Below, piece by piece: positions 8,200 through 47,117 of a stretch of 64,000 nt of DNA (position 1 is its first letter; each line of letters begins with the position of its first letter). Made by a program: the position numbers and the translations under genes. The stretch covers positions 2,379 through 66,378 of the forward strand of contig JAYENW010000020.1 in the NCBI GenBank assembly GCA_034722275.1, in the 5' to 3' direction. This DNA comes from Chloroflexota bacterium (lineage in GTDB: Bacteria; Chloroflexota; Dehalococcoidia; GIF9; AB-539-J10). Below the pieces are notes generated by a model. It had not been told where the DNA came from. It did no database searches and worked only from the letters and a program-made list of their open reading frames with translations.

Positions 8200-9577
8200 T
8201 GACGGATGCCATTCTCTTTAGAGTAAGCCCTTCGTTTCTCTCCAGTTCTCTCGCCCAGTCACCTAACCCGCAGGCATGATGGATAATTAAGGGGGTGCTC
8301 ATCGGGGGAAGAATATCCTGATTCAGCCCGTAGGCAAATATAACGCTATTCATTTCTCGCTCAGTCTCTGCTGAGTCCCATGGAGTGGGGTGGATGAAGC
8401 CGTGGCTTGCCCCTTCGTCTGTAGAATAAAACCAGTTCTCGGGGAACTCTTCCTTTAGCTGTCTTATGAGCTTGATGGCAGAGAGGTTGGTATCTACAGA
8501 ATAACCCTTGTTCAAATTCCTTAAGATGGAATTAGAAAAAGATTCAAATCCTGCTGCTGAGAGAAAAATACGCACCTCCATCGTTTTAGCCAGGTTTAAG
8601 GAGGCTCTGATGTTTTCCTCTCCTATTACCAGCCAATCAGCGCGGCTGACCAGATTTAGCTGAGAGATGTTGATTCCCTGCTGTTTAATAGTCAGTAACA
8701 AGTTAGGTAATGTTGGCAGGGGTGCCTCATTTATCAGCTCAAAGGGGATTTTTCTTCCTTCAGCATCATTGGGCAAGTTGGTTATCTGCATCAGCACACT
8801 CTCCAATGGCAGGTTGCCACCAAAACCCTTATCCCGAGCTACATCGCAGAAGCTGCAGCCATGAAGGTTGAAGGATATCTTGCCCTTCTTGGAGAAGGAA
8901 GTATCTTTCAGGTTAGTTGGATAATCAAGGCTAACCTTTACCTCTTTAGCAGCGTAAGGACACCCTATCTGCTGCACTACCTGAGCGTTGGAAATAGATA
9001 CTGGCTTAAGGCCTGATGAATCCAGGTGATATAAATTTTCCCAATTAACCTTGGCTAAAAAATCCGCATTCCATCTATTTTGCTCATTCATCTGGCATTT
9101 GCCGTTCCCGATGAATAGTGCACCATAGATTTTCTCAGGCTCCTTCTTCTCTTGAGAATTAAGAAAGGGGATTAGTTGTTCGGCAGGTCCCTGGAGAGCA
9201 AAACTGAAGTTGTCCCTGACTCCGGGAAATCGGTGATGGTGTTTTTCCCAACCTATCTCGCCGGAATAATCGACATCGGCTTGAGGGCCACCCAGAATAG
9301 TTATAATCCCTTCTGCTTTCAACTCTTTAGCCAGTGCCCACAACTCAGGACGACCTCCAAGGTTGCTAAAGCCGATAATTGGTCTATCGCCACAAGCAAG
9401 CCGGACTATGTTTTTCTTGACGATATCCTTATCAAAATTGTGGCCGACTGCTACTACCACACACTCATAGTCACTATTATCCTGGATAATAGTAGCTGCC
9501 ACCTGTGGGCCCAGCAGGCCGTAGTTTTCCTCAGTATCGGCATAATTAACTAAAATAGGTATTAACTTTTTCATCAC
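8186..9577 (-). CDS. B12-binding-domain / radical-SAM-like protein with non-canonical cysteine motif
   Basis: The 463-aa product has an N-terminal Rossmann-like domain arranged like the B12-binding domains of the two class-B radical SAM proteins in this window. At the expected CxxxCxxC position it reads GCPYAAKEV, so two Cys are replaced. A GCSFCDV motif follows about 45 aa later. Confidence 0.45.
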   Translation of the reverse strand: MMKKLIPILVNYADTEENYGLLGPQVAATIIQDNSDYECVVVAVGHNFDKDIVKKNIVRLACGDRPIIGFSNLGGRPELWALAKELKAEGIITILGGPQADVDYSGEIGWEKHHHRFPGVRDNFSFALQGPAEQLIPFLNSQEKKEPEKIYGALFIGNGKCQMNEQNRWNADFLAKVNWENLYHLDSSGLKPVSISNAQVVQQIGCPYAAKEVKVSLDYPTNLKDTSFSKKGKISFNLHGCSFCDVARDKGFGGNLPLESVLMQITNLPNDAEGRKIPFELINEAPLPTLPNLLLTIKQQGINISQLNLVSRADWLVIGEENIRASLNLAKTMEVRIFLSAAGFESFSNSILRNLNKGYSVDTNLSAIKLIRQLKEEFPENWFYSTDEGASHGFIHPTPWDSAETEREMNSVIFAYGLNQDILPPMSTPLIIHHACGLGDWARELERNEGLTLKRMASVIEWW

Positions 9578-26385: not shown

Positions 26386-27183
26386 GTGTCAGCGCAAATA
26401 TTACGAAGCAAAAACCTGGCTACTAAATTCCAGATATTGCTGGAGATAGCAGCTAATCAACCCAACATACAACAAAAAGATGTTGCTAAAAGACTGAGTA
26501 TAACTTCTCAGGCGGTCTCCGAATATGTTAAAGAACTGGTAAAAGATGGTTGGCTTAGTTCTCGTGGTCGTTCGCGATATAGGGTAACCAGAAAGGGTGT
26601 GGACTGGATTTTAAAGATGTCCCGGCAATTACAAAACTACTCCTCCTTTGTGAACAAGGTGATAAGTGATATAGCGACTTCTACTGCGATAGCTGATAGC
26701 GATTTATCAACCGGTCAAAGAGTTTCCCTATATATGAAAGATGGGGTGTTATTTACCTCTGATGCTCTGAGCGGTGAGGGAGCTGAAGGGATAACTGTTT
26801 CTGAAGCTAAAAAAGGCGAAGGTGTTGGTGTTTCTGGGATAGAGGGGGTGATAAAGCTTACAACTGGCAGGATAACTATAGGGAAAGTTCCTGGTGTGCA
26901 GGAAGGAGGTTCACGGAATACTGACCTTACCCGATTGAAAAATGAGGTAGGTAAAGCCAAGCTAATAGGAGCTATTGGGCTTGAAGCTTTGGTGGCCTTA
27001 AAACAGACAGATAAGCTCCCTCAATATTTTTATGGTGTCAAAGAAGCAGCGATAGAGGCAGCTTATTGTGGCCTGTCTTTTTTCATTGTTTGTAGCGAAG
27101 ATAATATTGCAGCATTAGTAGGGAAATTAGAAGAGGAAAACTTGAATTACAATATTGTCGATTTTGGAAAAGGTGTTAGCTAA
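26386..27183 (+). CDS. winged-helix (HTH) domain protein of unknown function
   Basis: The 265-aa product has an N-terminal HTH (KDVAKRLSITSQAVSEYVKELVKDGWL). The glycine-rich C-terminal domain has no assignable family. Confidence 0.4.
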   Translation: MSAQILRSKNLATKFQILLEIAANQPNIQQKDVAKRLSITSQAVSEYVKELVKDGWLSSRGRSRYRVTRKGVDWILKMSRQLQNYSSFVNKVISDIATSTAIADSDLSTGQRVSLYMKDGVLFTSDALSGEGAEGITVSEAKKGEGVGVSGIEGVIKLTTGRITIGKVPGVQEGGSRNTDLTRLKNEVGKAKLIGAIGLEALVALKQTDKLPQYFYGVKEAAIEAAYCGLSFFIVCSEDNIAALVGKLEEENLNYNIVDFGKGVS

Positions 27184-27898
27184 TATATTTTTGCTCTTGG
27201 GTGGTTATTTTTTGGGTGCTCTTCCTTTTGTTGTTGCCTTAGCCAGGACATCTGGATTGGATGCATCTCAAGAAGAAGATTTACATATTGCCTTATGGCA
27301 CAAGGCAAGCAAAAAAAAGGCTATACTGGCAGGAGGGGTGGATTTCCTTAAAGGAATCATTATTATACTCATTGGCTTTGGCTTTGGTTTACCGGCTATG
27401 GTGGTTGTTTTCTCTGGTGTGGCTGTTGTGGCAGGACAAATGTGGCCGCCTTTTCGTATTTGCCACGGGGAGAGGGGGAATCTGGTTGGTGTGGGTCTAG
27501 TATTTACCTTGCCCTTGCTTTACGGTGAATACTGGGTTCTGCTCTCTCTCATATTTTTTGCTGCCGGCGCTGCTCTGAAATATTACTATGAGAATCGTGG
27601 CAGTATGATTATTGAGACACGGGATAAGCATACTGGATTCTCCAACTTTGCCCATCGCATGACTCTGAGTTTACCTCTAGGTATGCTCCTGGGATTTGTT
27701 GCTGCTCCTGTAGTTTCTTGGTGCTCTGGTGGGCTAAAGGGCTTAACTCTGGGCTTTTTTGTCTTGTTTATTCTTATTGTAGTGCGGCGCTTAACTGCTG
27801 ACCTCAAGGATGATATAGGGAAAGGTAATTGTACTATAAAGGTGCTGTTTAATCGTTTTCTTTTTGACCAACCATTTATCGGTGAAGGAGTGGAGTAA
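27155..27898 (+). CDS. PlsY-family membrane protein, divergent paralog A (lacks canonical GSGNxGATN motif)
   Basis: The product is homologous over its whole length to the canonical PlsY at 56640-57260. It keeps the conserved blocks DFLKG and AGQMWPPFRICHGERGN (compare DIAKG, AGHSFPIFLQFRGGKG). Motif 1 is replaced by ALWHKASKKK. The TTG start at 27155 overlaps the upstream gene; a GTG at 27176 is an alternative start. Confidence 0.5.
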   Translation: MSILEKVLANIFLLLGGYFLGALPFVVALARTSGLDASQEEDLHIALWHKASKKKAILAGGVDFLKGIIIILIGFGFGLPAMVVVFSGVAVVAGQMWPPFRICHGERGNLVGVGLVFTLPLLYGEYWVLLSLIFFAAGAALKYYYENRGSMIIETRDKHTGFSNFAHRMTLSLPLGMLLGFVAAPVVSWCSGGLKGLTLGFFVLFILIVVRRLTADLKDDIGKGNCTIKVLFNRFLFDQPFIGEGVE

Positions 27899-27918: not shown

Positions 27919-28590
27919 TTATGCTGTATTCTTTATTCGCCGAAAAGTAACATATCCCACAATAGCCCCCACAGTAATCATCACTACTATCCATATGATG
28001 AGTATATTGGGGTAAAGTTGGGGATTGAAAAATTTTGATACTCTGCCCCCCAAAGCTCCCAATGCCAGAAAAAGCATTTCCCAGAGCAGCACATGTGCCA
28101 TCACAGCGATGAAAAAGTGTTTGTGGCCAATTTTAGCGATACCGCAGGCAATAGTGCTGATAACTGAAAATCCCGGTGTAAACCGCGCTGCAATTATACT
28201 GGGTATGGCAAGTGACCCCAGCTTTTGCCTCCCCAGGGCAAGGCGTTCCGGAGTGATGCGAACATATTTGCCGAATTTGTCTATGATGGTGCCTCCGAAG
28301 GAAGACGAAAGCTGGTAAGCAGATGTGGAACCACACAAACGCCCAATGCCTGCTATCGCCAGAAATGGCACCGACGCTATGAAATACCCGCTGTGAACGA
28401 TCTGAAAGCCGGTAAACAGCAGCATACTTTCCAAAATTGGGCTGGTTACCGGCAACCCTAGTTCGCCAAGCGCGGCTAATGAGAAAACGATACCCAACCA
28501 TAACAAGCCACCTGCAGTAACTGCAGCGAGAATTTGCCATATAGTATTCGCCATAGCTATATTACAATTATAGCTTGATTTTTCCCTCAT
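27919..28590 (-). CDS. DedA/TVP38 family membrane protein
   Basis: The 223-aa product has 5-6 predicted transmembrane helices and a DedA-type re-entrant motif region (IAARFTPGFSVISTIACGIAKIGHKHFF). Confidence 0.55.
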   Translation of the reverse strand: MREKSSYNCNIAMANTIWQILAAVTAGGLLWLGIVFSLAALGELGLPVTSPILESMLLFTGFQIVHSGYFIASVPFLAIAGIGRLCGSTSAYQLSSSFGGTIIDKFGKYVRITPERLALGRQKLGSLAIPSIIAARFTPGFSVISTIACGIAKIGHKHFFIAVMAHVLLWEMLFLALGALGGRVSKFFNPQLYPNILIIWIVVMITVGAIVGYVTFRRIKNTA

Positions 28591-28698: not shown

Positions 28699-29829
28699 GT
28701 GGAGAAGATAGTTCTTATTAACCTCACTGGTGGACCAACACTGAAAGAGGATGGCATTTATTTCACTGAGGGTGGTTTAGTACACGCCTTGTTTGCTTTA
28801 GCTAACCTGACTTCAGATTATGATATCACGATTCTCTGCCCTAACCTGCCGGGAAATAACCATAAACAGGAGATTAAATATCGAGGGGTTAATATCTTAT
28901 GCCTGGGAAGCTCCAGATGGATAAGGTGGATGCACAGTGGCGATTTATCTTTCCTTGAAGAAGCTAGAAACTACATTGTTGAAGAGAAACCAGACATCTT
29001 AATTGGGAATGGTGTTTCAGCATCGTTTCTTCTCCGCTTTATTCCCACAAGAGCCTGTAAAGTAGGGGTTGTTCACCACTTATACCACACTGCGTCTGTT
29101 GATGGCTCATCCAAGCGTGCATTCTCGGGGATTGGGATGCTGGAGAGACTGGCACTTAATTTAACTAAACTGGATAAGGTTGCCGTGATTAATCCTATGG
29201 TTAAAGGTAGTCTGGTAAAAGAAAGATTTGGCTCAGATGAGATTGTAGTTGTAGGCAATGGTGTTGATGTCGAACGCTATTTCTTCGTTGAAAATAAGGT
29301 GCCTTACAGTTTAATTTATATTGGGAGGTTGACTGAACTCAAGAGGGTGTGCTCTCTTGTTGGTGTTGTCGCCATGGTAAAGGAAAAAATTCCTGATGTA
29401 GTATTACACATTATTGGTGATGGTCCCAAACATAAAGAAGTAAGCCAGCGAATCGAAGACTTAGAGTTATCGCGGAACGTTATCATGCATGGCTATCTAC
29501 CCGAAGAAGAAAAGATTGAACTGTTGTCGAGCTCTGCCATCTATCTTTCTAACTCTGCTTTCGAAGGATTTGGCATTCCTTTGGTTGAAGCTATGGCTAC
29601 CGGTGCTGTTCCCATAGTTAGCGATATTGATGCCCACAGGTTCATTTTTCAAGGAGAAGATGTTGGTTGTTTAGTGGGAAATGAAGAGAAAATGGCGGAA
29701 AAGATTGTTGAACTGCTTGCTGATGAAACAGAACGGCTGAGATTAGCTTGGAATGGACGCAAGCTTGTGGAGGAAAGATGGACTTGGGCAAAAGTGGGTG
29801 AAAAGTATAAAGAGCTTCTTGGAAGATAA
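28699..29829 (+). CDS. glycosyltransferase family 4 (GT-B, GT1-like)
   Basis: The 376-aa product has a C-terminal EGFGIPLVEAMATG motif, the E-x7-E signature of retaining GT4 enzymes. Confidence 0.75.
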   Translation: MEKIVLINLTGGPTLKEDGIYFTEGGLVHALFALANLTSDYDITILCPNLPGNNHKQEIKYRGVNILCLGSSRWIRWMHSGDLSFLEEARNYIVEEKPDILIGNGVSASFLLRFIPTRACKVGVVHHLYHTASVDGSSKRAFSGIGMLERLALNLTKLDKVAVINPMVKGSLVKERFGSDEIVVVGNGVDVERYFFVENKVPYSLIYIGRLTELKRVCSLVGVVAMVKEKIPDVVLHIIGDGPKHKEVSQRIEDLELSRNVIMHGYLPEEEKIELLSSSAIYLSNSAFEGFGIPLVEAMATGAVPIVSDIDAHRFIFQGEDVGCLVGNEEKMAEKIVELLADETERLRLAWNGRKLVEERWTWAKVGEKYKELLGR

Positions 29830-30181: not shown

Positions 30182-31105
30182 ATGAGAGACGTAAGATTTT
30201 TTTTGTTGTTTTTAGTTCTGGTTCTTGTCTTCTCAATAGCCTGTTCTACTGCTGCGCCTCCAGGAGCCGTAGTTGATGATCTGGGAAGAGCAATCAATAT
30301 TGAACGAATACCTCAGAGGATTATCTCTTTAGCTCCTTCCAACACTGAGACACTATTTGCGTTAGGTCTAGGGGATAAAGTCGTGGGGGTGACGGAGTAT
30401 TGCAACTACCCGCCTGAAGCTCTGGATAAGGAAAAGATAGGGGGATATTCCACACCCGATATTGAAAAGATAATCGCACTGCAGCCTGATTTAGTACTGG
30501 CTAGTAGCATTCATGCCAAGGAATTTATTCCTGCTCTGGAGGAGAGAGGCCTCACGGTGTTTGCGTTGGCGCCAGAAAATCTAGGCGGGATACTCGAAGA
30601 TATCCGAATGGTGGGGGAAGTAACCGGAAAAGAGGAAGAAGCAAGTGAACTTGTAACCCGGATGGACAATAGGATTGAGGCAGTAACGAATAAAACCAAA
30701 AATATGCGAGAAAAACCAAGGATTTTCTTTATCACCTGGCATGAGCCCTTATGGACTGTTGGCTCGGGGACTATTATCCAGGAACTGATTGGGAAAGCAG
30801 GCGGAGTTAATATTTTCCAGGATATTAGTGGGCACAGCACAGTCGATCTTGAGGAAGTTATCTTTCGTGATCCTGAGGTAATTATTACTTGTACTGGGCA
30901 TGGAGATGCTAAAGGTAAACCTTTTGAGTGGGCAAAAAGTGAACCAAGGCTTCAGGTTACCAAGGCTAGAAAGAGTAGTAGGATATATCAAGTTGACGCT
31001 GATTTGGTTAATCGTGCTGGCCCCAGAGTGGTTGATGCTTTGGAGTGGTTTGCTTATTTTATTCATCCTGAAGTTTTCGGTAATCCGAAGGAGGTGATCA
31101 AGTGA
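30182..31105 (+). CDS. btuF: ABC transporter periplasmic substrate-binding protein, cobalamin / Fe3+-siderophore (BtuF-like) family
   Basis: The 307-aa product has a signal peptide with lipobox-like Cys (FSIACS) and a class III SBP fold (RIISLAPSNTETLFALGL...VVGVT). A GGAGG ribosome-binding site precedes it. It is the first gene of the corrinoid salvage cluster. Confidence 0.75.
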   Translation: MRDVRFFLLFLVLVLVFSIACSTAAPPGAVVDDLGRAINIERIPQRIISLAPSNTETLFALGLGDKVVGVTEYCNYPPEALDKEKIGGYSTPDIEKIIALQPDLVLASSIHAKEFIPALEERGLTVFALAPENLGGILEDIRMVGEVTGKEEEASELVTRMDNRIEAVTNKTKNMREKPRIFFITWHEPLWTVGSGTIIQELIGKAGGVNIFQDISGHSTVDLEEVIFRDPEVIITCTGHGDAKGKPFEWAKSEPRLQVTKARKSSRIYQVDADLVNRAGPRVVDALEWFAYFIHPEVFGNPKEVIK

Positions 31106-31737
31106 AGGTTTTTTCTTCCTGGAGTGGTGGAAAGGAATCTGCCCTGGCGACTTATAAGGCAATTTCACAAGGCCACGAAGTTTTGTATTTGGTCAATTTC
31201 GTCTCTGAAGATGGAAAGAGATCTAGGTCTCATGGGATCAAGGCTAATGTTTTGGCTTTACAGGCGGAAGCTATGGGCATTCCCTTAATTCAGGTAAAAA
31301 CATCTTGGGAAGATTATGAAGAGAATTTTAAAAAAGTTGCAACGCGGCTCAAGAAGAAAGGAATAGAGGGTGGAATTTTTGGCGATATGGAATTGGAGGA
31401 GCATCGGGAATGGATAGAAAGGGTCTGTGGTGAACTAAAAATAAAGGCGTTTTTGCCACTTTGGGGGATAGAGGCTGAGGAGCTGATCGATGAGTTTCTC
31501 AAGCTAGGATTTAAGGCTATGGTGATAGCTACTAAATTAGATGAGAATTTACTGGGGAAAGTTTTAGATGAGGCTCTTTTGAACCAAGTTATTCGACTTG
31601 GCTCCCACCCGTGTGGGGAAAATGGAGAATACCACACTTTTGTCACTTCAGGACCCACTTTCAAGAAGCCATTCGAAGTTGCTTTGGGGAAAAAAGAAGA
31701 AAGAGATGATACATGGTTTTTGGAAGTTTTGGCTTAA
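31102..31737 (+). CDS. PP-loop ATP pyrophosphatase of the MJ0570 / diphthine-ammonia ligase (ATP_bind_4) family
   Basis: The 211-aa product has a SWSGGKESA PP-loop and is colinear with MJ0570-like proteins (EVLYLVNFVSE, HTFVTSGP). A GTG start overlaps the btuF stop by 4 nt, preceded by an AAGGAGG ribosome-binding site. Confidence 0.7.
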   Translation: MKVFSSWSGGKESALATYKAISQGHEVLYLVNFVSEDGKRSRSHGIKANVLALQAEAMGIPLIQVKTSWEDYEENFKKVATRLKKKGIEGGIFGDMELEEHREWIERVCGELKIKAFLPLWGIEAEELIDEFLKLGFKAMVIATKLDENLLGKVLDEALLNQVIRLGSHPCGENGEYHTFVTSGPTFKKPFEVALGKKEERDDTWFLEVLA

Positions 31738-31765
31738 TACAATAAAGATTAATGAAGGGAGTAAG

Positions 31766-32296
31766 ATGAAAGAGAAAGGTTTAACTCAAATATATACTGG
31801 AGATGGTAAAGGAAAGTCTACCGCTGCTGTTGGTCAAGCAGTTCGTGCTGCCGGTCACGATTTAAAAGTGGGCTTGGTCACTTTCTTTAAAGATCCCGAG
31901 GTATTTGGATATGGAGAATATCGATCTCTGCAAAGGCTGGGGATAAAAACATTTCACTTTGCCAGGAAGCATCCTCATTTTTATAAGGAAGTGAGCATGG
32001 ATGAAGTCAGGGAAGAATGCCTAGAAGGCGTGGAGTTTATTGAGGAACTTTTCAAAGATAAGTCCTGGGATATACTGGTTTTGGATGAAATAAACATTGC
32101 TGTGCGCGATGGCTTCTTGAAGGAAGAGGAGGTTCTTTCTCTTTTGGAGGCGAAGCCGGAGAAATTGGAGCTTATCTTAACGGGTCGTGGAGTTTCAGAA
32201 AAGATTATAGAGAAGGCAGATTTGGTTAGCGAGGTTAAGAAGATAAAACATCCTTATGATCAGGGAATACAAAAAAGAGAAGGCATTGAATATTAG
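31766..32296 (+). CDS. cobA: cob(I)yrinic acid a,c-diamide / cob(I)alamin adenosyltransferase (CobA/BtuR type)
   Basis: The start is an ATG at 31766 with an AGGGAG ribosome-binding site. The product begins MKEKGLTQIYTGDGKGKSTAAVG with the CobA P-loop and has the downstream ILDEIN motif. The longer ORF-track start at 31598 would overlap the preceding gene and is rejected. Confidence 0.8.
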   Translation: MKEKGLTQIYTGDGKGKSTAAVGQAVRAAGHDLKVGLVTFFKDPEVFGYGEYRSLQRLGIKTFHFARKHPHFYKEVSMDEVREECLEGVEFIEELFKDKSWDILVLDEINIAVRDGFLKEEEVLSLLEAKPEKLELILTGRGVSEKIIEKADLVSEVKKIKHPYDQGIQKREGIEY

Positions 32297-32346
32297 TATA
32301 GATTACCTGGAATGTGCTCTTGGAGCTTTGTGTCTGAGGGTTAACG

Positions 32347-33450
32347 ATGTTGTTACATGCGGTGTCAGAATCAATCAGTGAGCCTGCTATACCTTATGCT
32401 CTTCATTGGAGGGGCAAGCTTTATGCCCTGATAGGGGTTTTGGGATTGCTTGTGGCAACAGTTATATTTGCCACTACCCTGGGAAGTGCTCATATACCTT
32501 TTTCTACTTGTCTTCAGGTTCTTCTTTCCCAGATACCTTTTTTACACATCAGCCTATCCTGTCCAGCGACTCTTAATATAGCAACCTTGAATACGATAAT
32601 CGTGGATATCAGGCTGCCGCGGATTCTTCTGGCGGGCTTGGTGGGAGCAGCCTTGGCGGTAGCTGGGGCTACTTACCAGGGATTATTTCGTAATCCCTTG
32701 GCTGATCCCTATCTTCTTGGTGTTGCCTCGGGGGCTGGATTGGGAGCTACCGTTGCTTTCCTCATTCCCTTCGCTATCTCTTGGATGAGCCTTGGTGCAG
32801 TTCCTTTATTTGCTTTCATTGGCGCTATGGGTGCTGTGGCTGTAGTCTATTCATTAGCTCGTGTGGGCAAGACCCTGCCAGCAACCACCCTTATCCTGGC
32901 TGGAGTAGCTTTGGGTGCTTTTCTATCTTCAATCACCTCTTACCTTATGACTATTTGTGGGGAGGAACTGCATGGGATTGTATTTTGGCTGATGGGGGGA
33001 CTTTCCCTGACTAAATGGTCTGAAGTATGGACGGTTCTGCCTTGTGTATTGGTGGGCATTGTAATCATCTGTCTTCATGCTCGGCCTCTTAATGTGATGC
33101 AGCTTGATGAAGAGCAGGCACAGCAATTGGGCATTAATGTGGAGAGAGTCAAGCTTATCTTGATGAGCGCAGCCACTTTAATTACTTCTGCTGCAGTTTG
33201 CTTCACGGGTCTAATAGGTTTCGTTGGTATCATTGTTCCCCATGCGGTGAGGCTTATTTGGGGTCCTGACTATCGTTTCTTGCTCCCCTTGTCTGTTTTA
33301 GTTGGTGCTGTATTCCTCATCCTTGCTGACACCTTGGCGCATACATTGCTTTCTCCTACAGAGATTCCGGTGGGTATAATCACCGCTTTCTGTGGAGCCC
33401 CCTTCTTTCTTTATTTATTGCGACGAAAAAAAGGACTTGCTTTCTTTTAA
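32347..33450 (+). CDS. btuC: FecCD-family ABC permease (corrinoid/siderophore type)
   Basis: The 367-aa product has about 9-10 transmembrane helices, a conserved RLPRILLAGLVGAALA segment and a C-terminal EIPVGIITAFCGAPFFLYLL motif. Confidence 0.8.
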   Translation: MLLHAVSESISEPAIPYALHWRGKLYALIGVLGLLVATVIFATTLGSAHIPFSTCLQVLLSQIPFLHISLSCPATLNIATLNTIIVDIRLPRILLAGLVGAALAVAGATYQGLFRNPLADPYLLGVASGAGLGATVAFLIPFAISWMSLGAVPLFAFIGAMGAVAVVYSLARVGKTLPATTLILAGVALGAFLSSITSYLMTICGEELHGIVFWLMGGLSLTKWSEVWTVLPCVLVGIVIICLHARPLNVMQLDEEQAQQLGINVERVKLILMSAATLITSAAVCFTGLIGFVGIIVPHAVRLIWGPDYRFLLPLSVLVGAVFLILADTLAHTLLSPTEIPVGIITAFCGAPFFLYLLRRKKGLAFF

Positions 33451-33485
33451 AGAGGCTATATTTAAGCAAAATAGGGTAAAGTGTC

Positions 33486-34292
33486 ATGATTGAACTAAAG
33501 GACGTCAGTTTAGGCTATAACCATCGGGCTGTCCTGAATAATATAAACCTGGAGGCGGTGCCAGGTAAGATGTTGGGGCTCATTGGACCTAATGGTTCGG
33601 GGAAGTCAACATTGATCAAGGGGATGACTAGGGTGATCAATCTTTTCTCCGGGCATATTTTTATTGATGGTCATGAAATAGCTAGTATGAAGAGAGAGGA
33701 GCTTGCTAAATTTGTGGCTGTTGTACCCCAAAATCCTGTTTTGCCTGAAGCTTTCACTGCCTTTGAAATGGTGCTCATGGGGCGGACGCCTCATCTGGGG
33801 CTTCTTCGCTATGAAGGGGGAAAGGATATAGCTATTGTCTGGCAAGCGATGAAAATGACACAAGCGGAATTTCTCGCGGAACGCAGAGTGGGGGAGCTTT
33901 CTGGAGGAGAAAAGCAGAGACTTGTTATCGCTCGGGCTTTAACTCAGCAGTCAGAGGTGCTTCTTCTTGATGAGCCCACTGCACAGTTAGACATAAATAA
34001 CCAAATTGAGATTCTAGACTTGATCAAGAGACTGTCCCTTGAGCATAGTTTGACTGTTATTGTTGCCTTGCATGACCTCAATTTGGCAGCTCAATATTGC
34101 GATTGGCTGGTCATGCTGAAGGAAGGAAAGATTTATACTGAGGGTATACCCCAAGATGTACTTGTTCCTCACAATATCAAAGATGTATATGGAGCTGAAG
34201 TAAGCGTCCTTCCTCATCCGGTCAATGGTTTGCCGGTGACGCTTATTACAAGCAGTGAAGGCAACAAAGAAAAGGACTACATTCGCTATTAA
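33486..34292 (+). CDS. btuD: ABC transporter ATP-binding protein (BtuD/FepC type)
   Basis: The 268-aa product has Walker A (GPNGSGKST), an ABC signature (LSGGEKQR) and Walker B (LLLDEPT). Confidence 0.85.
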   Translation: MIELKDVSLGYNHRAVLNNINLEAVPGKMLGLIGPNGSGKSTLIKGMTRVINLFSGHIFIDGHEIASMKREELAKFVAVVPQNPVLPEAFTAFEMVLMGRTPHLGLLRYEGGKDIAIVWQAMKMTQAEFLAERRVGELSGGEKQRLVIARALTQQSEVLLLDEPTAQLDINNQIEILDLIKRLSLEHSLTVIVALHDLNLAAQYCDWLVMLKEGKIYTEGIPQDVLVPHNIKDVYGAEVSVLPHPVNGLPVTLITSSEGNKEKDYIRY

Positions 34293-34300
34293 GGAAAGCT

Positions 34301-35233
34301 GTGGAAGTTTTATTTGTCTTTCTTCTGGCCCTGGTTCTCGACTTTTTTGTGGGTGAGCCACCTCGACCTGTGCATCCTGTTGTCTGGATGGGAAAGCTGA
34401 TATCTCTATTGGAGCGAATCGCCTTTCCCCGTGATTCTCGAGCACAATTCATCTATGGCAGCATAATGTGCTTGCTTACTATTCTTGTCTTTGTCTTACC
34501 AGTCTATTTTCTCTTGTCCTTTCTCCATGATTTAAATTCTATAGCTTATGTATTTTTAGCTGCTTTGTTGTTAAAAAGTACTTTTGCCTTTAGAGAATTG
34601 CGACAGACTGCTTTGATGGTCAAATCATTTCTTTCTCAAGATAATTTAAAGAAAGCTCGTGCTGCTATGCCGGCTTTAGTTAGCCGTGACACTCAAGGCA
34701 TGGGGAAGCCCGAGCTGGTATCAGCAACGATAGAATCTGTGGCAGAGAACATTTGTGATAGTTTCATTGCTCCCTTATTTTACTTCTTGTTTCTTGGGGT
34801 GTCTGGTGCCATAGCTTATCGTGTGGTCAATACGTTAGATGCCATGATTGGTTATCATGGGGAATGGGAATATTTGGGCAAATTTGCTGCCAGGCTGGAT
34901 GATATCCTGAATTTCGTCCCGGCACGAATCTCGGGATTATTGCTGGTAGCGGCAGCATATCTATATCATAAAGATGGCAAAAGTGCCTGGCGAATTATGC
35001 TTCGTGACCACTATAAAACGGAAAGTCCTAATGCTGGGTGGACTATAAGCGCTATGGCAGGGGCGCTTGGGACACGATTGGAAAAGAGAGCTTACTATAC
35101 TTTAGGTGATAGCAGCAATCCCTTGTCAAATCAACTGATTGGCTCTGGAGTGAGATTGCTTGATATCTCTGCCCTGCTTTGGGTTGGCCTTTACTTCATC
35201 ATGGAGGTAATGTTTTTTGTCTTTATCGCCTAA
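34301..35233 (+). CDS. cbiB: adenosylcobinamide-phosphate synthase CbiB/CobD
   Basis: The 310-aa membrane protein has a conserved HPV..MG N-terminal motif (PPRPVHPVVWMGK) and CbiB-family topology. Confidence 0.85.
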   Translation: MEVLFVFLLALVLDFFVGEPPRPVHPVVWMGKLISLLERIAFPRDSRAQFIYGSIMCLLTILVFVLPVYFLLSFLHDLNSIAYVFLAALLLKSTFAFRELRQTALMVKSFLSQDNLKKARAAMPALVSRDTQGMGKPELVSATIESVAENICDSFIAPLFYFLFLGVSGAIAYRVVNTLDAMIGYHGEWEYLGKFAARLDDILNFVPARISGLLLVAAAYLYHKDGKSAWRIMLRDHYKTESPNAGWTISAMAGALGTRLEKRAYYTLGDSSNPLSNQLIGSGVRLLDISALLWVGLYFIMEVMFFVFIA

Positions 35234-36344
35234 ACAAGTATCATGGAGACCTACCCCTAGCCGTGTGGGTCTAATGCCTGCTACGCATGGAGGTATTGAT
35301 TACGCTGAGCTAGAGATGCTGGGTATTGCCTCTCAGGAGGTTCTCGATTTCAGTGCTAACTTAAACCCTTTTGGGCCACCGCCGGGGATAATGGAGGCAA
35401 TAAACGAAATGGACGTCTCTCATTATCCTGATTCTGAGTCTACCTCTTTGAGGCGCTCCTTAAGCAGCAGTTTGGGGATAAAGGAGAATAATATAATAGT
35501 GGGCAATGGTTCTACTGAGCTTATACGCCTTGCTGCTCTGGCATATTTGGACAAGGAGGACAAAGTGCTCGTTATTGAGCCCACATTTGGCGAGTATGAG
35601 CTTGCTTGCCAACTTGCCGGGGCATCTGTGATAAAACAACAGTTGTTGCCGGAAGATGTTTTCCGCTTAGATGTAAAGGAAACCCTTGCCTTAATTCAGC
35701 GCCATGGTATTACAGGGGTCTTTATTGCTAATCCCAATAATCCCAGTGGGCAATATATCTCACAGATAGAGTTTGAGAAAATTCTGGATGCGGCTAAGAA
35801 TGCTTTAGTAGTTCTGGATGAGGCTTATATTAGCTTTGTCGAGAATAGCTGGACTTCTTTCGATTTCATCCTTGCTGGTAACTTGCTCGTTTTACGCTCT
35901 ATGACAAAAGATTATGCCATGGCTGGGCTTCGTCTCGGCTATGGAGTGGCAAGTGAGGAAATTATCGCTAACTTGCATAATATCTCTTTGCCCTGGAATG
36001 TCAATGCTCTAGCGCAAAAAGCAGGGATTGTGGCTTTGGAAAATGAAGACTATCTTAATCATTGTCGGGCAGAGCTTGAGAAAGCAAAAAGCTATCTGAT
36101 AACGGAGCTTTCCACTCTTGGTTTATCTCCACTTCCTTCAAAGGCAAATTTCTTTCTGGTAGAAGTTGGTGATGCCAGGATATTCCGCACGGAGTTGCTT
36201 AAACGAAAGATATTGGTACGTGATTGCACTTCGTTTGGTCTTCCCCATTACATTCGCATTGCTCCTCGTACTTTACCTGAATGTCAAAAATTAATTGCCT
36301 CAGTTAAAGAGATAATGAAAGGAAAAAGGAGGATAGGACTTTGA
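35217..36344 (+). CDS. cobD: L-threonine-O-3-phosphate decarboxylase (class I/II aminotransferase fold)
   Basis: The 375-aa product has a PLP-lysine region (SMTKDYAMAGLRLGY) and HGG near the N-terminus. The TTG start at 35217 sits 8 nt after a GGAGG. The ATG at 35274 is an alternative start. Confidence 0.75.
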   Translation: MSLSPKQVSWRPTPSRVGLMPATHGGIDYAELEMLGIASQEVLDFSANLNPFGPPPGIMEAINEMDVSHYPDSESTSLRRSLSSSLGIKENNIIVGNGSTELIRLAALAYLDKEDKVLVIEPTFGEYELACQLAGASVIKQQLLPEDVFRLDVKETLALIQRHGITGVFIANPNNPSGQYISQIEFEKILDAAKNALVVLDEAYISFVENSWTSFDFILAGNLLVLRSMTKDYAMAGLRLGYGVASEEIIANLHNISLPWNVNALAQKAGIVALENEDYLNHCRAELEKAKSYLITELSTLGLSPLPSKANFFLVEVGDARIFRTELLKRKILVRDCTSFGLPHYIRIAPRTLPECQKLIASVKEIMKGKRRIGL

Positions 36345-37414
36345 GTATCTCTCTTTATCAGGTACTGAAAGAAATAAAGCCCATGGATGTAGAGGCTATG
36401 AAGACAGCTCAGACTCGTCAGGATGAGCTGACCAAACCAGGGGGAAGTTTAGGCCGATTGGAGGAACTATCTATTCAAATGGCTGGTATTAAAGGCAAGG
36501 TAATATCGGGCTTTCAGCACAAAGCCATTATCACTATGGCTGCTGACCATGGTGTAGTAAATGATGAGGTCAGTCTTTACCCTCAGGAAGTTACCAGGCA
36601 GATGGTGTTTAATTTCCTTGCTGGGGGTGCTGCCATAAATGTTCTGGCTCGTCTCGTAGGCGCTCGCGTTGTCATCGTCGATATGGGAGTGATTGGAGGG
36701 GTTGAGCCGCATCCTGGCCTTATCTGCAAGATGATTGATTTTGGCACCAAAGATATGACTAAAGGGCCGGCAATGACGAGAGGGCAAGCACTGGATTCAA
36801 TTCAAGCTGGAATTGAAGTCATAGAAGGCGAAATCGCTAAAGGTCTTGATATTGTAGGCACTGGGGATATGGGTATTGGTAATACTACTGCCAGTAGTGC
36901 TATATGTGCTGCTATTACAGGAGACCTGGTGGAGAATGTGACTGGGTATGGTGCCGGGCTCAGTGATAAACAGCGTGCTCATAAGATTAAGATGATTAAA
37001 CAGGCTTTGGAGCTTAACAAACCTGATTCCAAAGACCCTATTGATGTATTAAGTAAAGTCGGAGGTTTTGAAATTGGAAGCTTAGCTGGGGTTATGCTTG
37101 GGGCAGCAACTCATCGAATCCCTGTGGTCATCGATGGTTTTATCTCGGGAGCTGCGGCACTCATAGCTACTGAACTTGCGCCTGTGTTAAAGAATTATCT
37201 TATCGCGGCACATCTTTCTGCTGAAGGTGGACATAAGAGATTGCTGGAATATTTAGGATTGGTTCCTCTTCTAAACTTGGGAATGCGCCTTGGCGAGGGG
37301 ACAGGGGCGGTACTGGGAATGGCAATTGTAGAAGCGGCAGTGAAAACTTTGAATGAGATGGCTACTTTTGCTGAAGCTGGTGTTTCACAGAGCAAGGAAG
37401 ACTCGTTATCTTGA
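36341..37414 (+). CDS. cobT: nicotinate-nucleotide--dimethylbenzimidazole phosphoribosyltransferase
   Basis: The 357-aa product has an LTKPGGSLGRLEEL N-terminal motif, a GDMGIGNTT signature and a catalytic Glu region. A TTG start follows an AAGGAGG ribosome-binding site. Confidence 0.85.
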   Translation: MSISLYQVLKEIKPMDVEAMKTAQTRQDELTKPGGSLGRLEELSIQMAGIKGKVISGFQHKAIITMAADHGVVNDEVSLYPQEVTRQMVFNFLAGGAAINVLARLVGARVVIVDMGVIGGVEPHPGLICKMIDFGTKDMTKGPAMTRGQALDSIQAGIEVIEGEIAKGLDIVGTGDMGIGNTTASSAICAAITGDLVENVTGYGAGLSDKQRAHKIKMIKQALELNKPDSKDPIDVLSKVGGFEIGSLAGVMLGAATHRIPVVIDGFISGAAALIATELAPVLKNYLIAAHLSAEGGHKRLLEYLGLVPLLNLGMRLGEGTGAVLGMAIVEAAVKTLNEMATFAEAGVSQSKEDSLS

Positions 37415-37498
37415 ATATAGGTAAAGCTCCAGGACTCTTTGTTGTGCTCGGAATGGTAGAATGCCGCAGTGAAAATTCAAAGAAAGAGGAATGACTAA

Positions 37499-38266
37499 GT
37501 GAGATTCTGGACTGCTTGGCAGTTTCTTACCATAATACCTCCTCCCCACCGTTCTGAATATACTTCTGGTGATATGAGTAAGTCGCTAATCTTTTTCCCC
37601 ATAGTGGGGCTTTTCTTGGGGTTGGTACTGTTGGGTTTGGATTTTCTCCTGGGATTATTTTTGCCACCTATCTTGATCAATGTCTTGCTTCTGGTTGTTT
37701 TGGTTGTCCTCACGGGGGCTTTACACCTCGATGGTTTCATTGATACCTGTGATGGCCTCGCAGTCAAGAGTTCGGTTCGGGAAAAGTTATATGTTATGAG
37801 TGATAGTCGTGTTGGTGGTTTTGGAGTCGTGGGAGGCTGCTGCCTCATCCTGGCTGAATTTGCCTCATTGGTTGCCCTGCCGGAGGGATTAAGGTCGAGC
37901 GCTCTCGTGCTTATGCCTCTTTTGAGTCGCTGGGGAATGGTCTATGCTATTTTTAGCTTCCCTGCGGCTAAGAAAGAAGGGGTGGGATGGGCTATTAAGC
38001 AAGGGGCTGATTGGAAAGAAATGGCTTTAGCAACAGTGATTTCTTTGATGATTGCGTTGGCTTTATTCAGTTGGTGGGGAGCAGTGCTTCTGGCAGCAAT
38101 TTGTCTGCTTATCCTGCTGTTTTCAAAATATCTTTACTCCCGGTTTGGAGGTCTCACCGGAGATAACTATGGTGCTATAAATGAGTTTGCTGAAGTAGCC
38201 GTGCTCCTTTTAATTTTTATAATAGGTAAATTGGGAGGTGCTAGCTGGCTGAGTGCATTCTTATAA
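37499..38266 (+). CDS. cobS: adenosylcobinamide-GDP ribazoletransferase (cobalamin synthase)
   Basis: The 255-aa polytopic membrane protein has conserved Asp residues (LHLDGFIDTCDG). Confidence 0.8.
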   Translation: MRFWTAWQFLTIIPPPHRSEYTSGDMSKSLIFFPIVGLFLGLVLLGLDFLLGLFLPPILINVLLLVVLVVLTGALHLDGFIDTCDGLAVKSSVREKLYVMSDSRVGGFGVVGGCCLILAEFASLVALPEGLRSSALVLMPLLSRWGMVYAIFSFPAAKKEGVGWAIKQGADWKEMALATVISLMIALALFSWWGAVLLAAICLLILLFSKYLYSRFGGLTGDNYGAINEFAEVAVLLLIFIIGKLGGASWLSAFL

Positions 38267-38310
38267 ATTGATAGGTTTTATTTTCATGACCTTGGCAGAA
38301 AAGCGATCTC

Positions 38311-38886
38311 ATGGCTAAGAATTTTATCCTTATTCTTGGTGGAATTCGCAGTGGCAAGAGCAGGTTTGCCCAGAGCATGGCAGCAAAACTTGGGAAGAAG
38401 GTACTTTTTGTAGCTACTGCAGAAGCTCTTGACGCTGAAATGACTTTCAGGATCAGGGAGCATAAAAAGGTGCGCCCTAAGGACTGGCGGACACTGGAGA
38501 TTAATATCAATGTGGGGCAGAAGTTGGGAAGGCAGATTGCTGATGCCGATGTCGTTTTGCTTGATTGTTTAACCTTGCTCGTCTCTAATGTGATAATTGG
38601 AGATAGCAAAAGCCCTGCCTCTGTAGCACAGAAACGCGTCGTGTCTGAGATAGAAGATTTAGTTAAGTGTATTGATAAATGTGAAGGTACCTTTATCATA
38701 GTTTCTAACGAAGTGGGTTTGGGCCTGATGCCTGCGAATAAATTAGGTCGGCTTTACTGCGATTGTCTGGGCAGAGCCAATCAACTTCTAGCCCGGCATG
38801 CAAGCCATGTTTACTTTATGGTCTCAGGTATTCCAATCGCAATAAAAGGTGAAGTACATCAGGAATGTGAAAGAGGTTGGGAATAA
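38311..38886 (+). CDS. cobU: adenosylcobinamide kinase / adenosylcobinamide-phosphate guanylyltransferase
   Basis: The 191-aa product has a P-loop (ILGGIRSGKS) and the CobU family C-terminal region. Confidence 0.85.
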   Translation: MAKNFILILGGIRSGKSRFAQSMAAKLGKKVLFVATAEALDAEMTFRIREHKKVRPKDWRTLEININVGQKLGRQIADADVVLLDCLTLLVSNVIIGDSKSPASVAQKRVVSEIEDLVKCIDKCEGTFIIVSNEVGLGLMPANKLGRLYCDCLGRANQLLARHASHVYFMVSGIPIAIKGEVHQECERGWE

Positions 38887-40357: not shown

Positions 40358-40795
40358 ATGAGCGCAAAAGTTTACCAGGGCGAAATTCTTTCTCCTGTGG
40401 TAAGGAATATCACGCAGGAGAAAATCAATCTCTATGCTGAAGCCTCGGGCGATTTTAATCCCATTCATGTGGATGAATCTTTTGCTGCCCAGACACCTCT
40501 TGGTGGCACTATTGCCCATGGTATGCTTATCTTGGCTTATGTCTCGGAAATAATGATACAAAGCTTTGGCTATGGTTGGCTTGGTCGAGGTAAGCTTTCA
40601 GCGCGCTTTAAGACAGCAGCACGCCCTGGAGATACTCTCACTGTTACTGGCAAGGTTGATTCACTTGAGGAGAGAAATGGTGTATCATATGCAACTTGTA
40701 GCCTCGAGTGCTGCAATCAAAAAGGTGAGACTATAGTTACAGCTGAAGCGGTATCTGAGCTTGTAGAAGAAAGAGAAGCGCATGACCGAAAGTAA
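40358..40795 (+). CDS. MaoC-like (R)-specific enoyl/3-hydroxyacyl dehydratase (hot-dog fold, catalytic)
   Basis: The 145-aa product has the hydratase 2 motif DFNPIHVDESFA with catalytic Asp/His. It overlaps plsX by 14 nt. Confidence 0.7.
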   Translation: MSAKVYQGEILSPVVRNITQEKINLYAEASGDFNPIHVDESFAAQTPLGGTIAHGMLILAYVSEIMIQSFGYGWLGRGKLSARFKTAARPGDTLTVTGKVDSLEERNGVSYATCSLECCNQKGETIVTAEAVSELVEEREAHDRK

Positions 40796-41810
40796 GAAAG
40801 TGAGGGTGGCACTTGATGCTATGGGTGGTGATTTTGCCCCTGAAGAGATAGTCAAAGGAGCAGTTCTGGCGGCGCAAAGAAATGACGTCGAGGTTATTTT
40901 AACTGGTCCTGGTGATGTATTGAAAAGGGAGTTAGGCAAATATAAGTTTTCTCAGAATTTGCCCATTCGCTGCGTCGAAGCCAAACAAGTTATCAGCGAG
41001 GATGAGCCGCCCGCTTCGGCAGTCCGTCGCAAGCCTGATTCTTCTATAGTCATGGCAGCGAAGCTGGTGAAATCGGGTGAGGCTGATGCTTTAGTGAGTG
41101 CTGGGTCCAGCGCTGCAGTAGCAGTTAGTGCTATCCAGTATATAGGCATGGTAGAAGGAATAGAGCGTCCCGCGGTTGGTGGAAATTTGGGTAGCTTCGC
41201 ACCTGATATAGTGATTATGGATATGGGTGTCAATGTTGATTGTAAGCCACAGCATCTTTTGGCCTTTGCCATTGAGGGTTGTGTTTTTGCTGAAAAGTTG
41301 CTCAATGTTTCCGACCCTACTGTAGGTTTATTGAGTACTGGTGTTGAGGAGAGCAAAGGAAATGAGGCAGTGCGCGAAGCTTACTCTTTGCTTCGGAGTG
41401 GGAACTTGAATTTTATTGGTAAGATAGAGGGCAATGAAATATTGAGCGGGCGGGCTAATGTCATCGTTTGCGATGGATTTGTGGGCAATGTGCTGTTGAA
41501 ATTTTATGAAAGTATAGGAGACTGTGCGAAAACCTATGTAAAGCGAAGATTAAGATTCCCTCCATTGAGGGCGGTAGCTGGCTTGCTATTTGGTAGTTTG
41601 TTTCCTGTAACCAAAATAGCTTATGAAGGTGAAGAAGAGGGTGGTGGTATTCTATGGGGTATCAACGGGGTTGTCAGAATAGCACATGGCAGCGGTAAAG
41701 CTCCTCATATCGCTCATGCTATAGCAAGCGCCAAGAAAGCTTTTGAAGCTGACATCGTTGATTCCTTGAAGGCTAGATTAGCTGAGTTCAAAAATGAAAG
41801 CAGATTATGA
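40782..41810 (+). CDS. plsX: phosphate:acyl-ACP acyltransferase PlsX (copy 1)
   Basis: The 342-aa product has a VALDAMGGD N-terminal motif and PlsX family conservation throughout. Confidence 0.85.
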   Translation: MTESKKVRVALDAMGGDFAPEEIVKGAVLAAQRNDVEVILTGPGDVLKRELGKYKFSQNLPIRCVEAKQVISEDEPPASAVRRKPDSSIVMAAKLVKSGEADALVSAGSSAAVAVSAIQYIGMVEGIERPAVGGNLGSFAPDIVIMDMGVNVDCKPQHLLAFAIEGCVFAEKLLNVSDPTVGLLSTGVEESKGNEAVREAYSLLRSGNLNFIGKIEGNEILSGRANVIVCDGFVGNVLLKFYESIGDCAKTYVKRRLRFPPLRAVAGLLFGSLFPVTKIAYEGEEEGGGILWGINGVVRIAHGSGKAPHIAHAIASAKKAFEADIVDSLKARLAEFKNESRL

Positions 41811-44946: not shown

Positions 44947-45065
44947 GCATTCGTCGTTTCTCTGAGCATATCGCCTTGCGACATATTGACAATGGAGCGA
45001 CCTGATGATGCATAATATCTCCACATATATGTAGAGTGGGAGTTCTTACTCACCTTAGGGGTGAT

Positions 45066-46067
45066 ATGAATGATAAAATGGTGAAGATAGCTGTTGATGC
45101 TATGGGAGGTGATTACGCTCCTCCAGAAATAGTCAAAGGAGCAATTCAGGCAGCCAGAGAACAGGAAGTGGAAATTATTCTGGCAGGTCGTGAGGAAGTT
45201 ATCAAGGGGGAGGTTGCCAAGTACAATACTTCGAAACTTCCCTTTAGTATCATAAACGCCAATGATGTCATACAGGATGGCGAATTCCCAGTGACAGCCC
45301 TGCGTTTCAAGCCGGATGCTTCCATTCTGGTAGCTACCAGAATGGTGAAGGAAGGTGAAGCTGATGCTGTAGTAAGCATGGGCTCTACTGGCGCAGTTAT
45401 GGTGAGCGCGATAGAAATCCTGGGAAAACTGGAAGGTATAAAGCGTCCCAGTGCCGGTGGTTTTCTTTGTGGATTTGCCCCCGAGACAATGGTGTTTGAC
45501 ATGGGCCCAAACGCTGATTGTAAGCCACGAGATTTGTTGAATTTTGCCATTATAGGTTCTGTTGTTGCTCAAAAGATATTGCATATCAGTAAACCCACAG
45601 TAGCCCTTCTGAGCAACGGCGCTGAAGAAGGAAAGGGGAATCTTCTGGTAAAGAAAGCTTATCCTTTGTTTAAGGAAAGTCACCTTAACTTTATTGGCAA
45701 TGTAGAGGGAGGCGGCATTCCTTTTGGCAGGGCGAATGTTGTTGTTTGTGATGGGTTCATTGGGAATATTTTGTTAAAATTCTGTGAAGGTTTAGGCGTG
45801 GCTGTGGTTGAGCGATTGAAGACTGTTTTGGATAAGCAAATTCCAGAGGAACAAATAAAGGCTATCACCAATGACTTATTTGCCCTTACTCATAGTGCAG
45901 AAGCGGGTGGTCCCATTTTTGGGGTAGATGGCGTCGTGGTGATCGGGCATGGTCGTTCTAAAGCTCCACAGGTGGCCGATGCTATACGCATGGCAAAAAT
46001 GATGGTGGAAACTAATTTGGTGGAGGAATTAAAATTGGAGCTGGGGAGAGTAAAGAGTGAAGGTTAA
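45066..46067 (+). CDS. plsX: phosphate:acyl-ACP acyltransferase PlsX (copy 2)
   Basis: The product is a paralog of copy 1, roughly 50% identical by eye over aligned N-terminal blocks (IAVDAMGGDYAP). The ATG at 45066 was chosen to match the N-terminal length of copy 1. Confidence 0.8.
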   Translation: MNDKMVKIAVDAMGGDYAPPEIVKGAIQAAREQEVEIILAGREEVIKGEVAKYNTSKLPFSIINANDVIQDGEFPVTALRFKPDASILVATRMVKEGEADAVVSMGSTGAVMVSAIEILGKLEGIKRPSAGGFLCGFAPETMVFDMGPNADCKPRDLLNFAIIGSVVAQKILHISKPTVALLSNGAEEGKGNLLVKKAYPLFKESHLNFIGNVEGGGIPFGRANVVVCDGFIGNILLKFCEGLGVAVVERLKTVLDKQIPEEQIKAITNDLFALTHSAEAGGPIFGVDGVVVIGHGRSKAPQVADAIRMAKMMVETNLVEELKLELGRVKSEG

Positions 46068-47103: not shown

Positions 47104-47117
47104 AGCAGGAGGCGACC

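Follow-up and report, generated by a model that had tools for sequence, protein, structure and literature searches.

Two genes in a 64,000-nucleotide stretch of DNA from a Chloroflexota bacterium of the class Dehalococcoidia (contig JAYENW010000020.1, positions 2,379 to 66,378; hereafter the window) raise the question of what a protein built like the acyltransferase PlsY does when the signature motifs of PlsY are gone. In most bacteria the step that commits the cell to phospholipid synthesis is performed by PlsY, whose active-site residues are considered almost invariant. The two genes, paralog A (27155-27898) and paralog B (52861-53550), both on the forward strand, had been described in a first-pass annotation of the sequence as divergent PlsY-family paralogs without motif 1, accompanied by a canonical PlsY at 56640-57260. 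We refer to A, B and their relatives as the A/B family and to the protein at 56640-57260 as the C-type PlsY. From the analysis presented here, the A/B family is very probably a conserved and neofunctionalized group that does not act as a standard glycerol-3-phosphate (G3P) acyltransferase. Dehalococcoidia, a class abundant in sediments, aquifers and the subsurface, would thus hold a protein of predicted PlsY fold with a rebuilt active site that selection has frozen.

A and B are distant members of the PlsY family

As listed, the open reading frames (ORFs) encode 247 (A) and 229 (B) residues, but the N-termini of family members and the DNA itself indicate that translation likely starts at GTG 27173 in A (241 residues) and at ATG 52864 in B (228 residues). 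Both proteins passed the gathering score of Pfam family PF02660 (G3P_acyltransf; A 40.9 and B 51.0 bits versus a cutoff of 24.1, E-values 3e-10 and 2e-13), and both matched PlsY of Aquifex aeolicus, the only PlsY with a solved structure (PDB 5XJ5-5XJ9; match to 5xj5 at E = 7e-8 and 2e-7), in line with the earlier family assignment. BLASTP aligned A with B at 51% identity (E = 3e-75) rather than the 60-65% claimed previously, and the homology of A and B to the C-type PlsY, also pointed out before, is present but distant (22-27% identity, E = 8e-5 and 8e-7). The motifs DLHIALW, DFLKG, GQMWPPF, GERGN, RRLT and LFDQ of A read DLHIALQ, DFIKG, GQMWPPF, GEKGN, RRLT and LFDQ in B.

A model of A made with AlphaFold2 from an alignment of 44 sequences had a predicted local distance difference test score of 86.7 and a predicted template-modeling (TM) score of 0.83, and contained about seven long helices together with short ones in a layout similar to that of PlsY. 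When the model was compared with the PDB using Foldseek, the top three matches (5xj8_B, 5xj7 and 5xj8_A) were all PlsY with probability 1.0 and TM scores of 0.72-0.76 normalized to the target, and every other match had E > 2. The predicted fold of the A/B family is that of PlsY.

The active site has been rebuilt well beyond motif 1

In Aquifex PlsY (aaPlsY) the phosphate of G3P is clamped by S35, R45, K104 and N180 and its 2-OH is bound by S142 and H177, the acyl-phosphate is bound by the side chain of T41, the backbone of A40/T41 and H92, the oxyanion is stabilized by N37, and the backbone of K104-A107 forms the phosphate hole (PMC5700162). Single substitutions at S35, R45, N180 or H177 each abolished more than 90% of the activity, and catalysis in canonical PlsY is substrate-assisted, with no catalytic base (PMC5700162). 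We used aaPlsY through residue 192, recovered from alignments, as reference, and residues were mapped from one multiple alignment.

At the motif-1 position A has DLHIALWHKASK and B has DLHIALQRKVSK, with a deletion of three residues relative to GSGNVGATNVTR. The alignment bears out the earlier observation that A and B have another sequence, here given as DLHIAL(W/Q)(H/R)K, in place of GSGNxGATN, and the longer motif GSGNxGATNxxR gives way to (E/D)DLHIA---LW(H/R): S35 aligns with D42 and N37 with H44, A40-T41-N42 are deleted, and R45 is variable. The loss is, however, much wider than motif 1, where the first-pass annotation had placed it. H92 is replaced by Q95 within GQMWP, and motif 3, R-H177-x-x-N180, reads R-R-L-T-A, with R212 at the position of H177 and A215 at that of N180. 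In the motif-2 loop, F-x-GGKG, the glycines G102 and G105 are retained and K104 is kept as Lys or Arg, while G103 corresponds to E106 and V106 to N109; the D..KG motif is retained as well. By this alignment, nearly all aaPlsY side chains that contact G3P or acyl-phosphate are replaced in the A/B family, K104 excepted. In their stead stands a new conserved polar set made up of Asp42-x-His44, Gln95, Glu106, Asn109, Arg211-Arg212-x-Thr214 and, in a C-terminal helix, Arg234 and Asp238, and most of the new polar residues align with canonical active-site positions.

The A/B family is conserved across Dehalococcoidia

Conservation of single residues was computed over 199 non-identical full-length A/B members, down to about 31% identity. 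D42 was present in 100% of them, followed by K66, W97, P98, R212, T214 and D238 (99.5% each), Q95 (99%), H44 (98.5%), N109, R211 and R234 (98% each), D220 (97%) and E106 (95.5%). A database search with A returned 162 relatives; of the 120 listed, nearly all carry D-x-H-x-A-L-W. With one genome scanned per species, the family was located in at least 136 genomes, from which 80 loci were taken; all of these are from Chloroflexota, mostly labeled Dehalococcoidia, Dehalococcoidales or Dehalococcoidaceae, their products are 31-54% identical to A, and most of them have GQMWP, GE(K/R)GN, RR(L/V)T and (F/Y)D(R/Q). When 1.84 billion representatives were searched with a profile, 61 clusters (50% identity) passed E <= 1e-30 and 316 passed E <= 1e-10; no informative domain fusions were found in this search, the longer matches being N- or C-terminal extensions or partial matches. 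With a Dehalococcoidaceae member as query, 773 clusters (90% identity) were obtained at E <= 1e-10, and its best 120 matches comprised only proteins from metagenomes and metagenome-assembled genomes (MAGs), with no cultured host among them.

Paralog A is under purifying selection: the ratio of nonsynonymous to synonymous substitution rates (dN/dS) was 0.29 against an ortholog 94% identical in protein and 95.6% in nucleotide sequence, the neighboring genes for DedA, GT4 and FTHFS giving 0.15-0.22 in the same comparison. Relatives of A from independent samples are 94%, 78% and 62% identical to it, and B is matched at 99.6% identity by a protein from an independent assembly (P0071) and at 70% by two others (P0067 and P0072). 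An alignment and phylogeny of PlsY homologs, which the first-pass annotation had suggested, revealed a conserved subfamily: in a neighbor-joining tree the A/B family is monophyletic on a long stem, and A and B fall into two sister lineages that both also contain proteins of other organisms. A and B are therefore not peculiar to their source genome but represent two sister lineages of a class-wide family. Another genome (MAG CAWJIA01, loci L045 and L052) also holds two family copies, 88% identical and with similar CBS/response-regulator contexts, which implies that duplication of an A/B-family gene happened more than once.

Curated models and intermediate sequences

No NCBIfam model reached its cutoff for A, B or six distant A/B relatives. 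On TIGR00023, the PlsY equivalog with a cutoff of 137.2 bits, A scored 13.2, B 34.4 and the six relatives 29-50 bits. The best-scoring curated model for A, B and every relative tested was NF010993/PRK14417 (A 58.8 and B 66.7 bits, other members 69-103, cutoff 249), for which NCBI gives only the name 'membrane protein'.

Sequences between this model and the A/B family suggest how the family arose. The most canonical intermediates, P0338 and P0358, scored 243 and 228 bits on NF010993 and have GSGNVGATN or GTGNVGMSN as motif 1, together with GHxWP and GGRGV. Intermediates just below the core family keep motif 1 (e.g. GSGNVGGSNLWQ) and already carry GQ(M/C)WP, GGRGN, RRLT and a C-terminal LL(F/Y)DR helix, and in further intermediates motif 1 is degenerate; one intermediate is a protein from an Anaerolineae MAG. 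The series shows remodeling in steps, not decay. The apparent order of change is that motif 3 turned into RRLT and the C-terminal helix was gained, that H92 then changed to Gln, and that motif 1 became D-x-H and G103 became Glu in a last step on the Dehalococcoidia branch.

A DegV gene accompanies the family

To survey the gene context, ORFs were called in the 80 loci and labeled with the proteins of the window, and the remainder was clustered. In the window the gene for DegV2, a fatty-acid-binding protein of the DegV/FakB type (53627-54490, forward strand), lies 76 bp downstream of B. A DegV gene was present within 4 kb in 22 of the 80 loci, and, when only the 57 loci flanked by at least 2 kb on either side are counted, in 16 of them. 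In 16 loci the DegV gene directly precedes the family gene in the same orientation, at gaps of -82 to +127 bp, and the loci in question are scattered over distant clades of the family tree. By both identity and score, DegV2 is the closest of the DegV proteins in the window to 24 of the 25 DegV proteins encoded beside family members (36-52% identity, compared with 26-38% to DegV1 or DegV3); the DegV of locus L024 is borderline (30% versus 32% identity), although its best score is still to DegV2. By these comparisons DegV2 is the ortholog of the DegV that accompanies the A/B family elsewhere.

DegV2 itself is an ordinary DegV/FakB protein (E = 1e-31 to Bacillus subtilis DegV and 1e-25 to FakB1), and keeps the TTS, LSS, GGR and H-x-G-x-G stretches that we take to hold the fatty-acid carboxylate in FakB. 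The ligand of DegV proteins is a free fatty acid. DegV is the family-wide neighborhood signal, and the operon link to this one dedicated DegV paralog is the strongest functional clue.

Possible function of the A/B family

With a confidence just short of even, we favor the reading that A and B are neofunctionalized membrane enzymes of PlsY fold that use a DegV-bound fatty acid or acyl-phosphate and an acceptor other than G3P. A more specific acyl-transfer model can be proposed somewhat more tentatively. The fatty acid would be bound by the DegV partner, DegV2 in the window, and phosphorylated by FakA to an acyl-phosphate, and the A/B enzyme would transfer the acyl group from it to the acceptor. 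Since two acidic residues, D42 and E106, occupy the former phosphate clamp, a neutral or cationic acceptor would be more plausible than a phosphomonoester, and Asp42-x-His44 could act as a general base, for which canonical PlsY has no need. We are more doubtful that the family constitutes a previously unrecognized class of intramembrane enzyme on the PlsY scaffold, with a center of Asp42-His44, Glu106, Arg211-Arg212 and Thr214, a FakB-type carrier of its own and a lipid reaction so far assigned to no bacterial gene. Such an enzyme might acylate a head group that is non-phosphorylated or bears an amine, with acyl-phosphate as donor, in glycolipid or aminolipid synthesis, or perform a deacylation/reacylation step in lipid remodeling.

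Several points weigh against a DegV-coupled acyltransferase, whose reaction is inferred. The deletion in motif 1 takes away what holds the carbonyl of the acyl-phosphate in aaPlsY (the backbone of A40/T41 and the hydroxyl of T41), H92 has gone, and a Glu stands next to the phosphate hole, so that acyl-phosphate may not be the donor. A DegV neighbor is found in only about a quarter of the loci, and the remaining neighbors (DnaB/DnaC, the CBS and FAD proteins, MeaB, AAA_33 and PrsA) look like lineage synteny. Furthermore, the presumed housekeeping C-type PlsY is also devoid of T41, R45, H177 and N180, and residue loss is consequently a weaker argument against G3P acylation in Dehalococcoidia than elsewhere.

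The first-pass annotation had offered a different acceptor or a non-catalytic role as explanations, with strain-restricted, pseudogene-like decay as one of the outcomes that would overturn them. Decay of duplicates in this strain only would explain the loss of the textbook motifs and nothing else, and is refuted by the intact ORFs, the dN/dS of 0.29, the orthologs at 94%, 78%, 70% and 62% identity from independent samples, and the motifs that stay invariant in a family carried by at least 136 species genomes. Since A and B show conservation and not decay, it is reasonable to suppose that their substrate or role has changed, and that part of the earlier proposal stands, whereas the 95-100% conservation of the replacing residues argues against a merely non-catalytic remnant. 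A non-catalytic membrane partner that docks DegV2, hands over or withdraws fatty acids, or controls the synthesis of lipids would agree with the loss of all canonical catalytic and substrate-binding side chains except K104 and with the tight operon linkage to a soluble fatty-acid carrier, and has a precedent in Chloroflexi, where DegV genes are paired with functionally unassigned membrane proteins (bioRxiv 10.1101/2021.02.16.431466). Pseudoenzymes, however, usually lose conservation at the old site, while here the new polar residues are kept at 95-100% over a range of roughly 31-100% identity and the loop of the phosphate hole keeps its glycine scaffold, and we consider a non-catalytic partner quite unlikely.

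A hydrolase or phosphatase on the PlsY scaffold, with a His/Asp(/Glu or Thr) center and Arg-Arg as the binder of a phosphate or carboxylate, could deacylate lyso-lipids or dephosphorylate (lyso)phosphatidate or acyl-phosphate, and would deliver fatty acid to DegV2 or diacylglycerol to the neighboring GT4. The residues D42, H44, E106, K66, R211, R212 and T214 resemble hydrolytic or phosphoryl-transfer sites more than they resemble canonical PlsY, the free fatty acid as ligand of DegV fits a product of this kind, and both GT4 and DedA are neighbors in the clade of A. On the other hand, a similar inventory of residues does not amount to a test, only one clade has the GT4 link, and no known hydrolase or phosphatase was found to be similar in sequence or, in the Foldseek comparison, in fold; such an enzyme seems unlikely, if somewhat less so than a non-catalytic partner. 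That the proteins are still acyl-phosphate:G3P acyltransferases, isozymes with different binding residues as their annotation says, is improbable. Membership in PF02660, the PlsY fold, the names given to relatives by the JGI and NCBI pipelines, the retained K104 and loop glycines, the deviation of the C-type PlsY of the same class at four 'essential' positions and the presence of motif 1 in PRK14417-type relatives all speak for it. Yet S35 to Asp puts a negative charge into the phosphate clamp, N37, T41, H92, H177 and N180 are all replaced, and substitutions at S35, R45, N180 and H177 cost aaPlsY more than 90% of its activity (PMC5700162). The TIGR00023 scores of 13 and 34 bits against 137, with no NCBIfam model passed, and the coexistence of a C-type PlsY in the same genome point the same way.

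Genomic surroundings of A

Paralog A keeps the MarR/DedA/GT4 surroundings of its clade, whereas B adjoins DegV2 in a large lipid cluster. The gene preceding A (26386-27183, forward strand) encodes a protein with a MarR-type winged helix-turn-helix and a C-terminal DUF7839, and its end overlaps the start of A; the two are probably co-transcribed. The overlap is conserved in the lineage of A (loci L081-L083 and L091), and the MarR-DUF7839 gene had a dN/dS of 0.84 against a close ortholog, at very low divergence (dS 0.02). A DedA/VTT-domain membrane protein is encoded tail-to-tail with A (27919-28590, reverse strand), followed by a GT4 glycosyltransferase (28699-29829, forward strand), which is conserved together with DedA in the clade of A. 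The convergent pairing of an A-type gene with DedA was seen in 10 genome loci as well as in L081-L085 and L091. In the clade that contains A and B the family gene lies tail-to-tail with DedA and near GT4, with extras that vary between loci: a gene of DegV2 type plus one for an SDR, a methyltransferase of CMAS type, or a set of radical-SAM, GT2 and hydrolase genes. The CMAS-type (cyclopropane/methyl-branch fatty-acyl) methyltransferase lies between DedA and GT4 in L081 (11378-12139, reverse strand), L082 and L083, and is absent from the window. Directly downstream of A-DedA-GT4, the window has a cobalamin uptake and salvage cluster (30182-38886) with genes for a BtuF-like binding protein, a FecCD permease, CobS, CobU and a Diphthami_syn_2 protein, an arrangement conserved in L081 and L091.

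The lipid cluster around B

The first-pass annotation had listed DedA and a glycosyltransferase near A, and an acyl-CoA ligase and DegV near B, as lipid-related neighbors. All four are there, but the ligase, an AMP-binding enzyme of acyl-CoA-ligase type encoded upstream of B (51227-52708, forward strand), is not conserved as a family partner, being seen elsewhere only far from the family gene in L060 and L068. DnaB/DnaD/DnaC, a CBS protein, a COG2509-like FAD protein, a LuxR response regulator, MeaB, an AAA_33 kinase and PrsA were likewise rejected as family-wide partners, their occurrence being clade-restricted synteny. Scans for sigma-70 promoters and terminators around B found no more sites than in shuffled sequence.

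The window is rich in genes of acyl-phosphate metabolism. Its lipid cluster, within 40.8-58.3 kb, includes two PlsX genes, FabG, an SDR, two FabF-type ketoacyl synthases, DegV1 with a FakA-like kinase, DegV2, DegV3 and two B12-radical-SAM genes. The PlsX paralogs (40782-41810 and 45036-46067, both on the forward strand) are full-length, 3 kb apart, and flank FabG, FabF and SDR; one is followed by these three genes and the other by DegV1 and the FakA-like kinase. PlsX together with FabG/FabF/SDR is a supply route from acyl-ACP to acyl-phosphate, and DegV1 with the FakA-like kinase (46264-48041, forward strand) is likely a source of acyl-phosphate from free fatty acid. The FakA-like gene (307 residues) encodes only the Dak2 and FakA middle domains, the C-terminal FakA domain not being detected; DegV1 lies directly before it and FabF within 80 bp after it. 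The two B12-binding radical-SAM genes (49507-50853, reverse strand, and 54646-56178, forward strand), one of them with DUF4070, lie among FabF, the ligase, B/DegV2 and the C-type PlsY, and may be lipid-modifying. Elsewhere in the window, a 463-residue ORF (8186-9577, reverse strand) had no Pfam match at E <= 1e-5.

The C-type PlsY and further PlsY types

The PlsY at 56640-57260 (forward strand) had been called canonical but is atypical in its own way. It has GSKNMGTLNVYY as motif 1, GHSFPIF and GGKGG, and in the alignment no equivalents of aaPlsY T41, R45, H177 and N180, the last two being those of motif 3; its TIGR00023 score of 116.5 lies below the cutoff of 137.2. The protein matches an NCBI entry of a Chloroflexota MAG at 100% identity and belongs to a Dehalococcoidia family of its own, with GS(K/R)NMGxxNVYY, GHxFPxF, GGKGG and the C-terminus Y-x-P-(R/K)-(L/F)-(K/R)-E-M. 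It is probably the housekeeping enzyme, to judge by its orthologs, which are encoded either between gatC and gatA or, between ispD and ispF, behind a gene of DegV3 type.

In the window the DegV3 gene (57474-58316, reverse strand) is convergent with the C-type PlsY, and an ortholog of it with 86% identity stands directly upstream of the C-type PlsY in L089/L090. A rule of one DegV paralog per PlsY paralog was only partly supported: a DegV3-type gene precedes the C-type gene of a close relative, but more distant C-type genes lie between gatC and gatA. A fourth PlsY type, with GDHNPGAAN, GHAWSP and GGKA, is encoded in L040 (5080-5688, forward strand), 2 kb from the A/B member of that locus, which indicates that Dehalococcoidia carry a radiation of PlsY paralogs.

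Annotation and significance

A full-text literature search found no account of divergent PlsY paralogs or of DegV-PlsY modules in Chloroflexota or Dehalococcoidia and no paper describing the A/B family, its motifs or its DegV linkage, and a paper on a Dehalococcoides metabolic model does not discuss PlsY or PlsC. Pipelines label the A/B family 'glycerol-3-phosphate acyltransferase PlsY', and hundreds of database entries so named are probably misannotated, an error that distorts metabolic reconstructions of uncultured Dehalococcoidia. The family is a solid, testable lead of a common type, the divergent enzyme paralog. If its reaction proves new, it would reveal a step in the poorly known lipid biochemistry of Dehalococcoidia and show a substrate-assisted acyltransferase evolving different chemistry; a new enzyme class would add a Dehalococcoidia-specific branch of membrane-lipid synthesis.

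Comparison with known systems

The A/B family and PlsY have in common PF02660, the fold, the D..KG motif and the glycines of the G-x-K/R-G loop, and in the window they also share the nearby genes that generate acyl-phosphate (PlsX, FakA and DegV). They differ in the D-x-H-x-A-L-W form of motif 1 with its three-residue deletion and in the changes H92Q, G103E, H177R and N180A, and the A/B proteins add a C-terminal helix (R..L(F/Y)D) and a variable insertion between transmembrane helices TM5 and TM6. Compared with the C-type PlsY, for which NF010990/PRK14414 is the nearest NCBIfam model, PF02660 and the genome are shared, and each is sometimes preceded by a DegV paralog of its own; unlike A and B, the C-type keeps S35, N37, N42, H92 and GGKGG, and its genes occur in a gatC-plsY-gatA context in other genomes. 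The PRK14417 clade, also from Chloroflexota, resembles A and B in having RRLT where PlsY has RHxxN and in its LL(F/Y)D(R/Q) helix at the C-terminus, but its near-cutoff members keep GSGNVGATN, R45 and H92, whereas A and B lost motif 1 and H92 and gained E106. In the HX4D acyltransferases (PlsB/PlsC) a conserved His with a nearby Asp serves as general base for acyl transfer. The likeness of Asp42-x-His44 to that pair would be one of analogy only, with no tie in sequence or fold, and the order and spacing of the residues is D-x-H and not H-x4-D.

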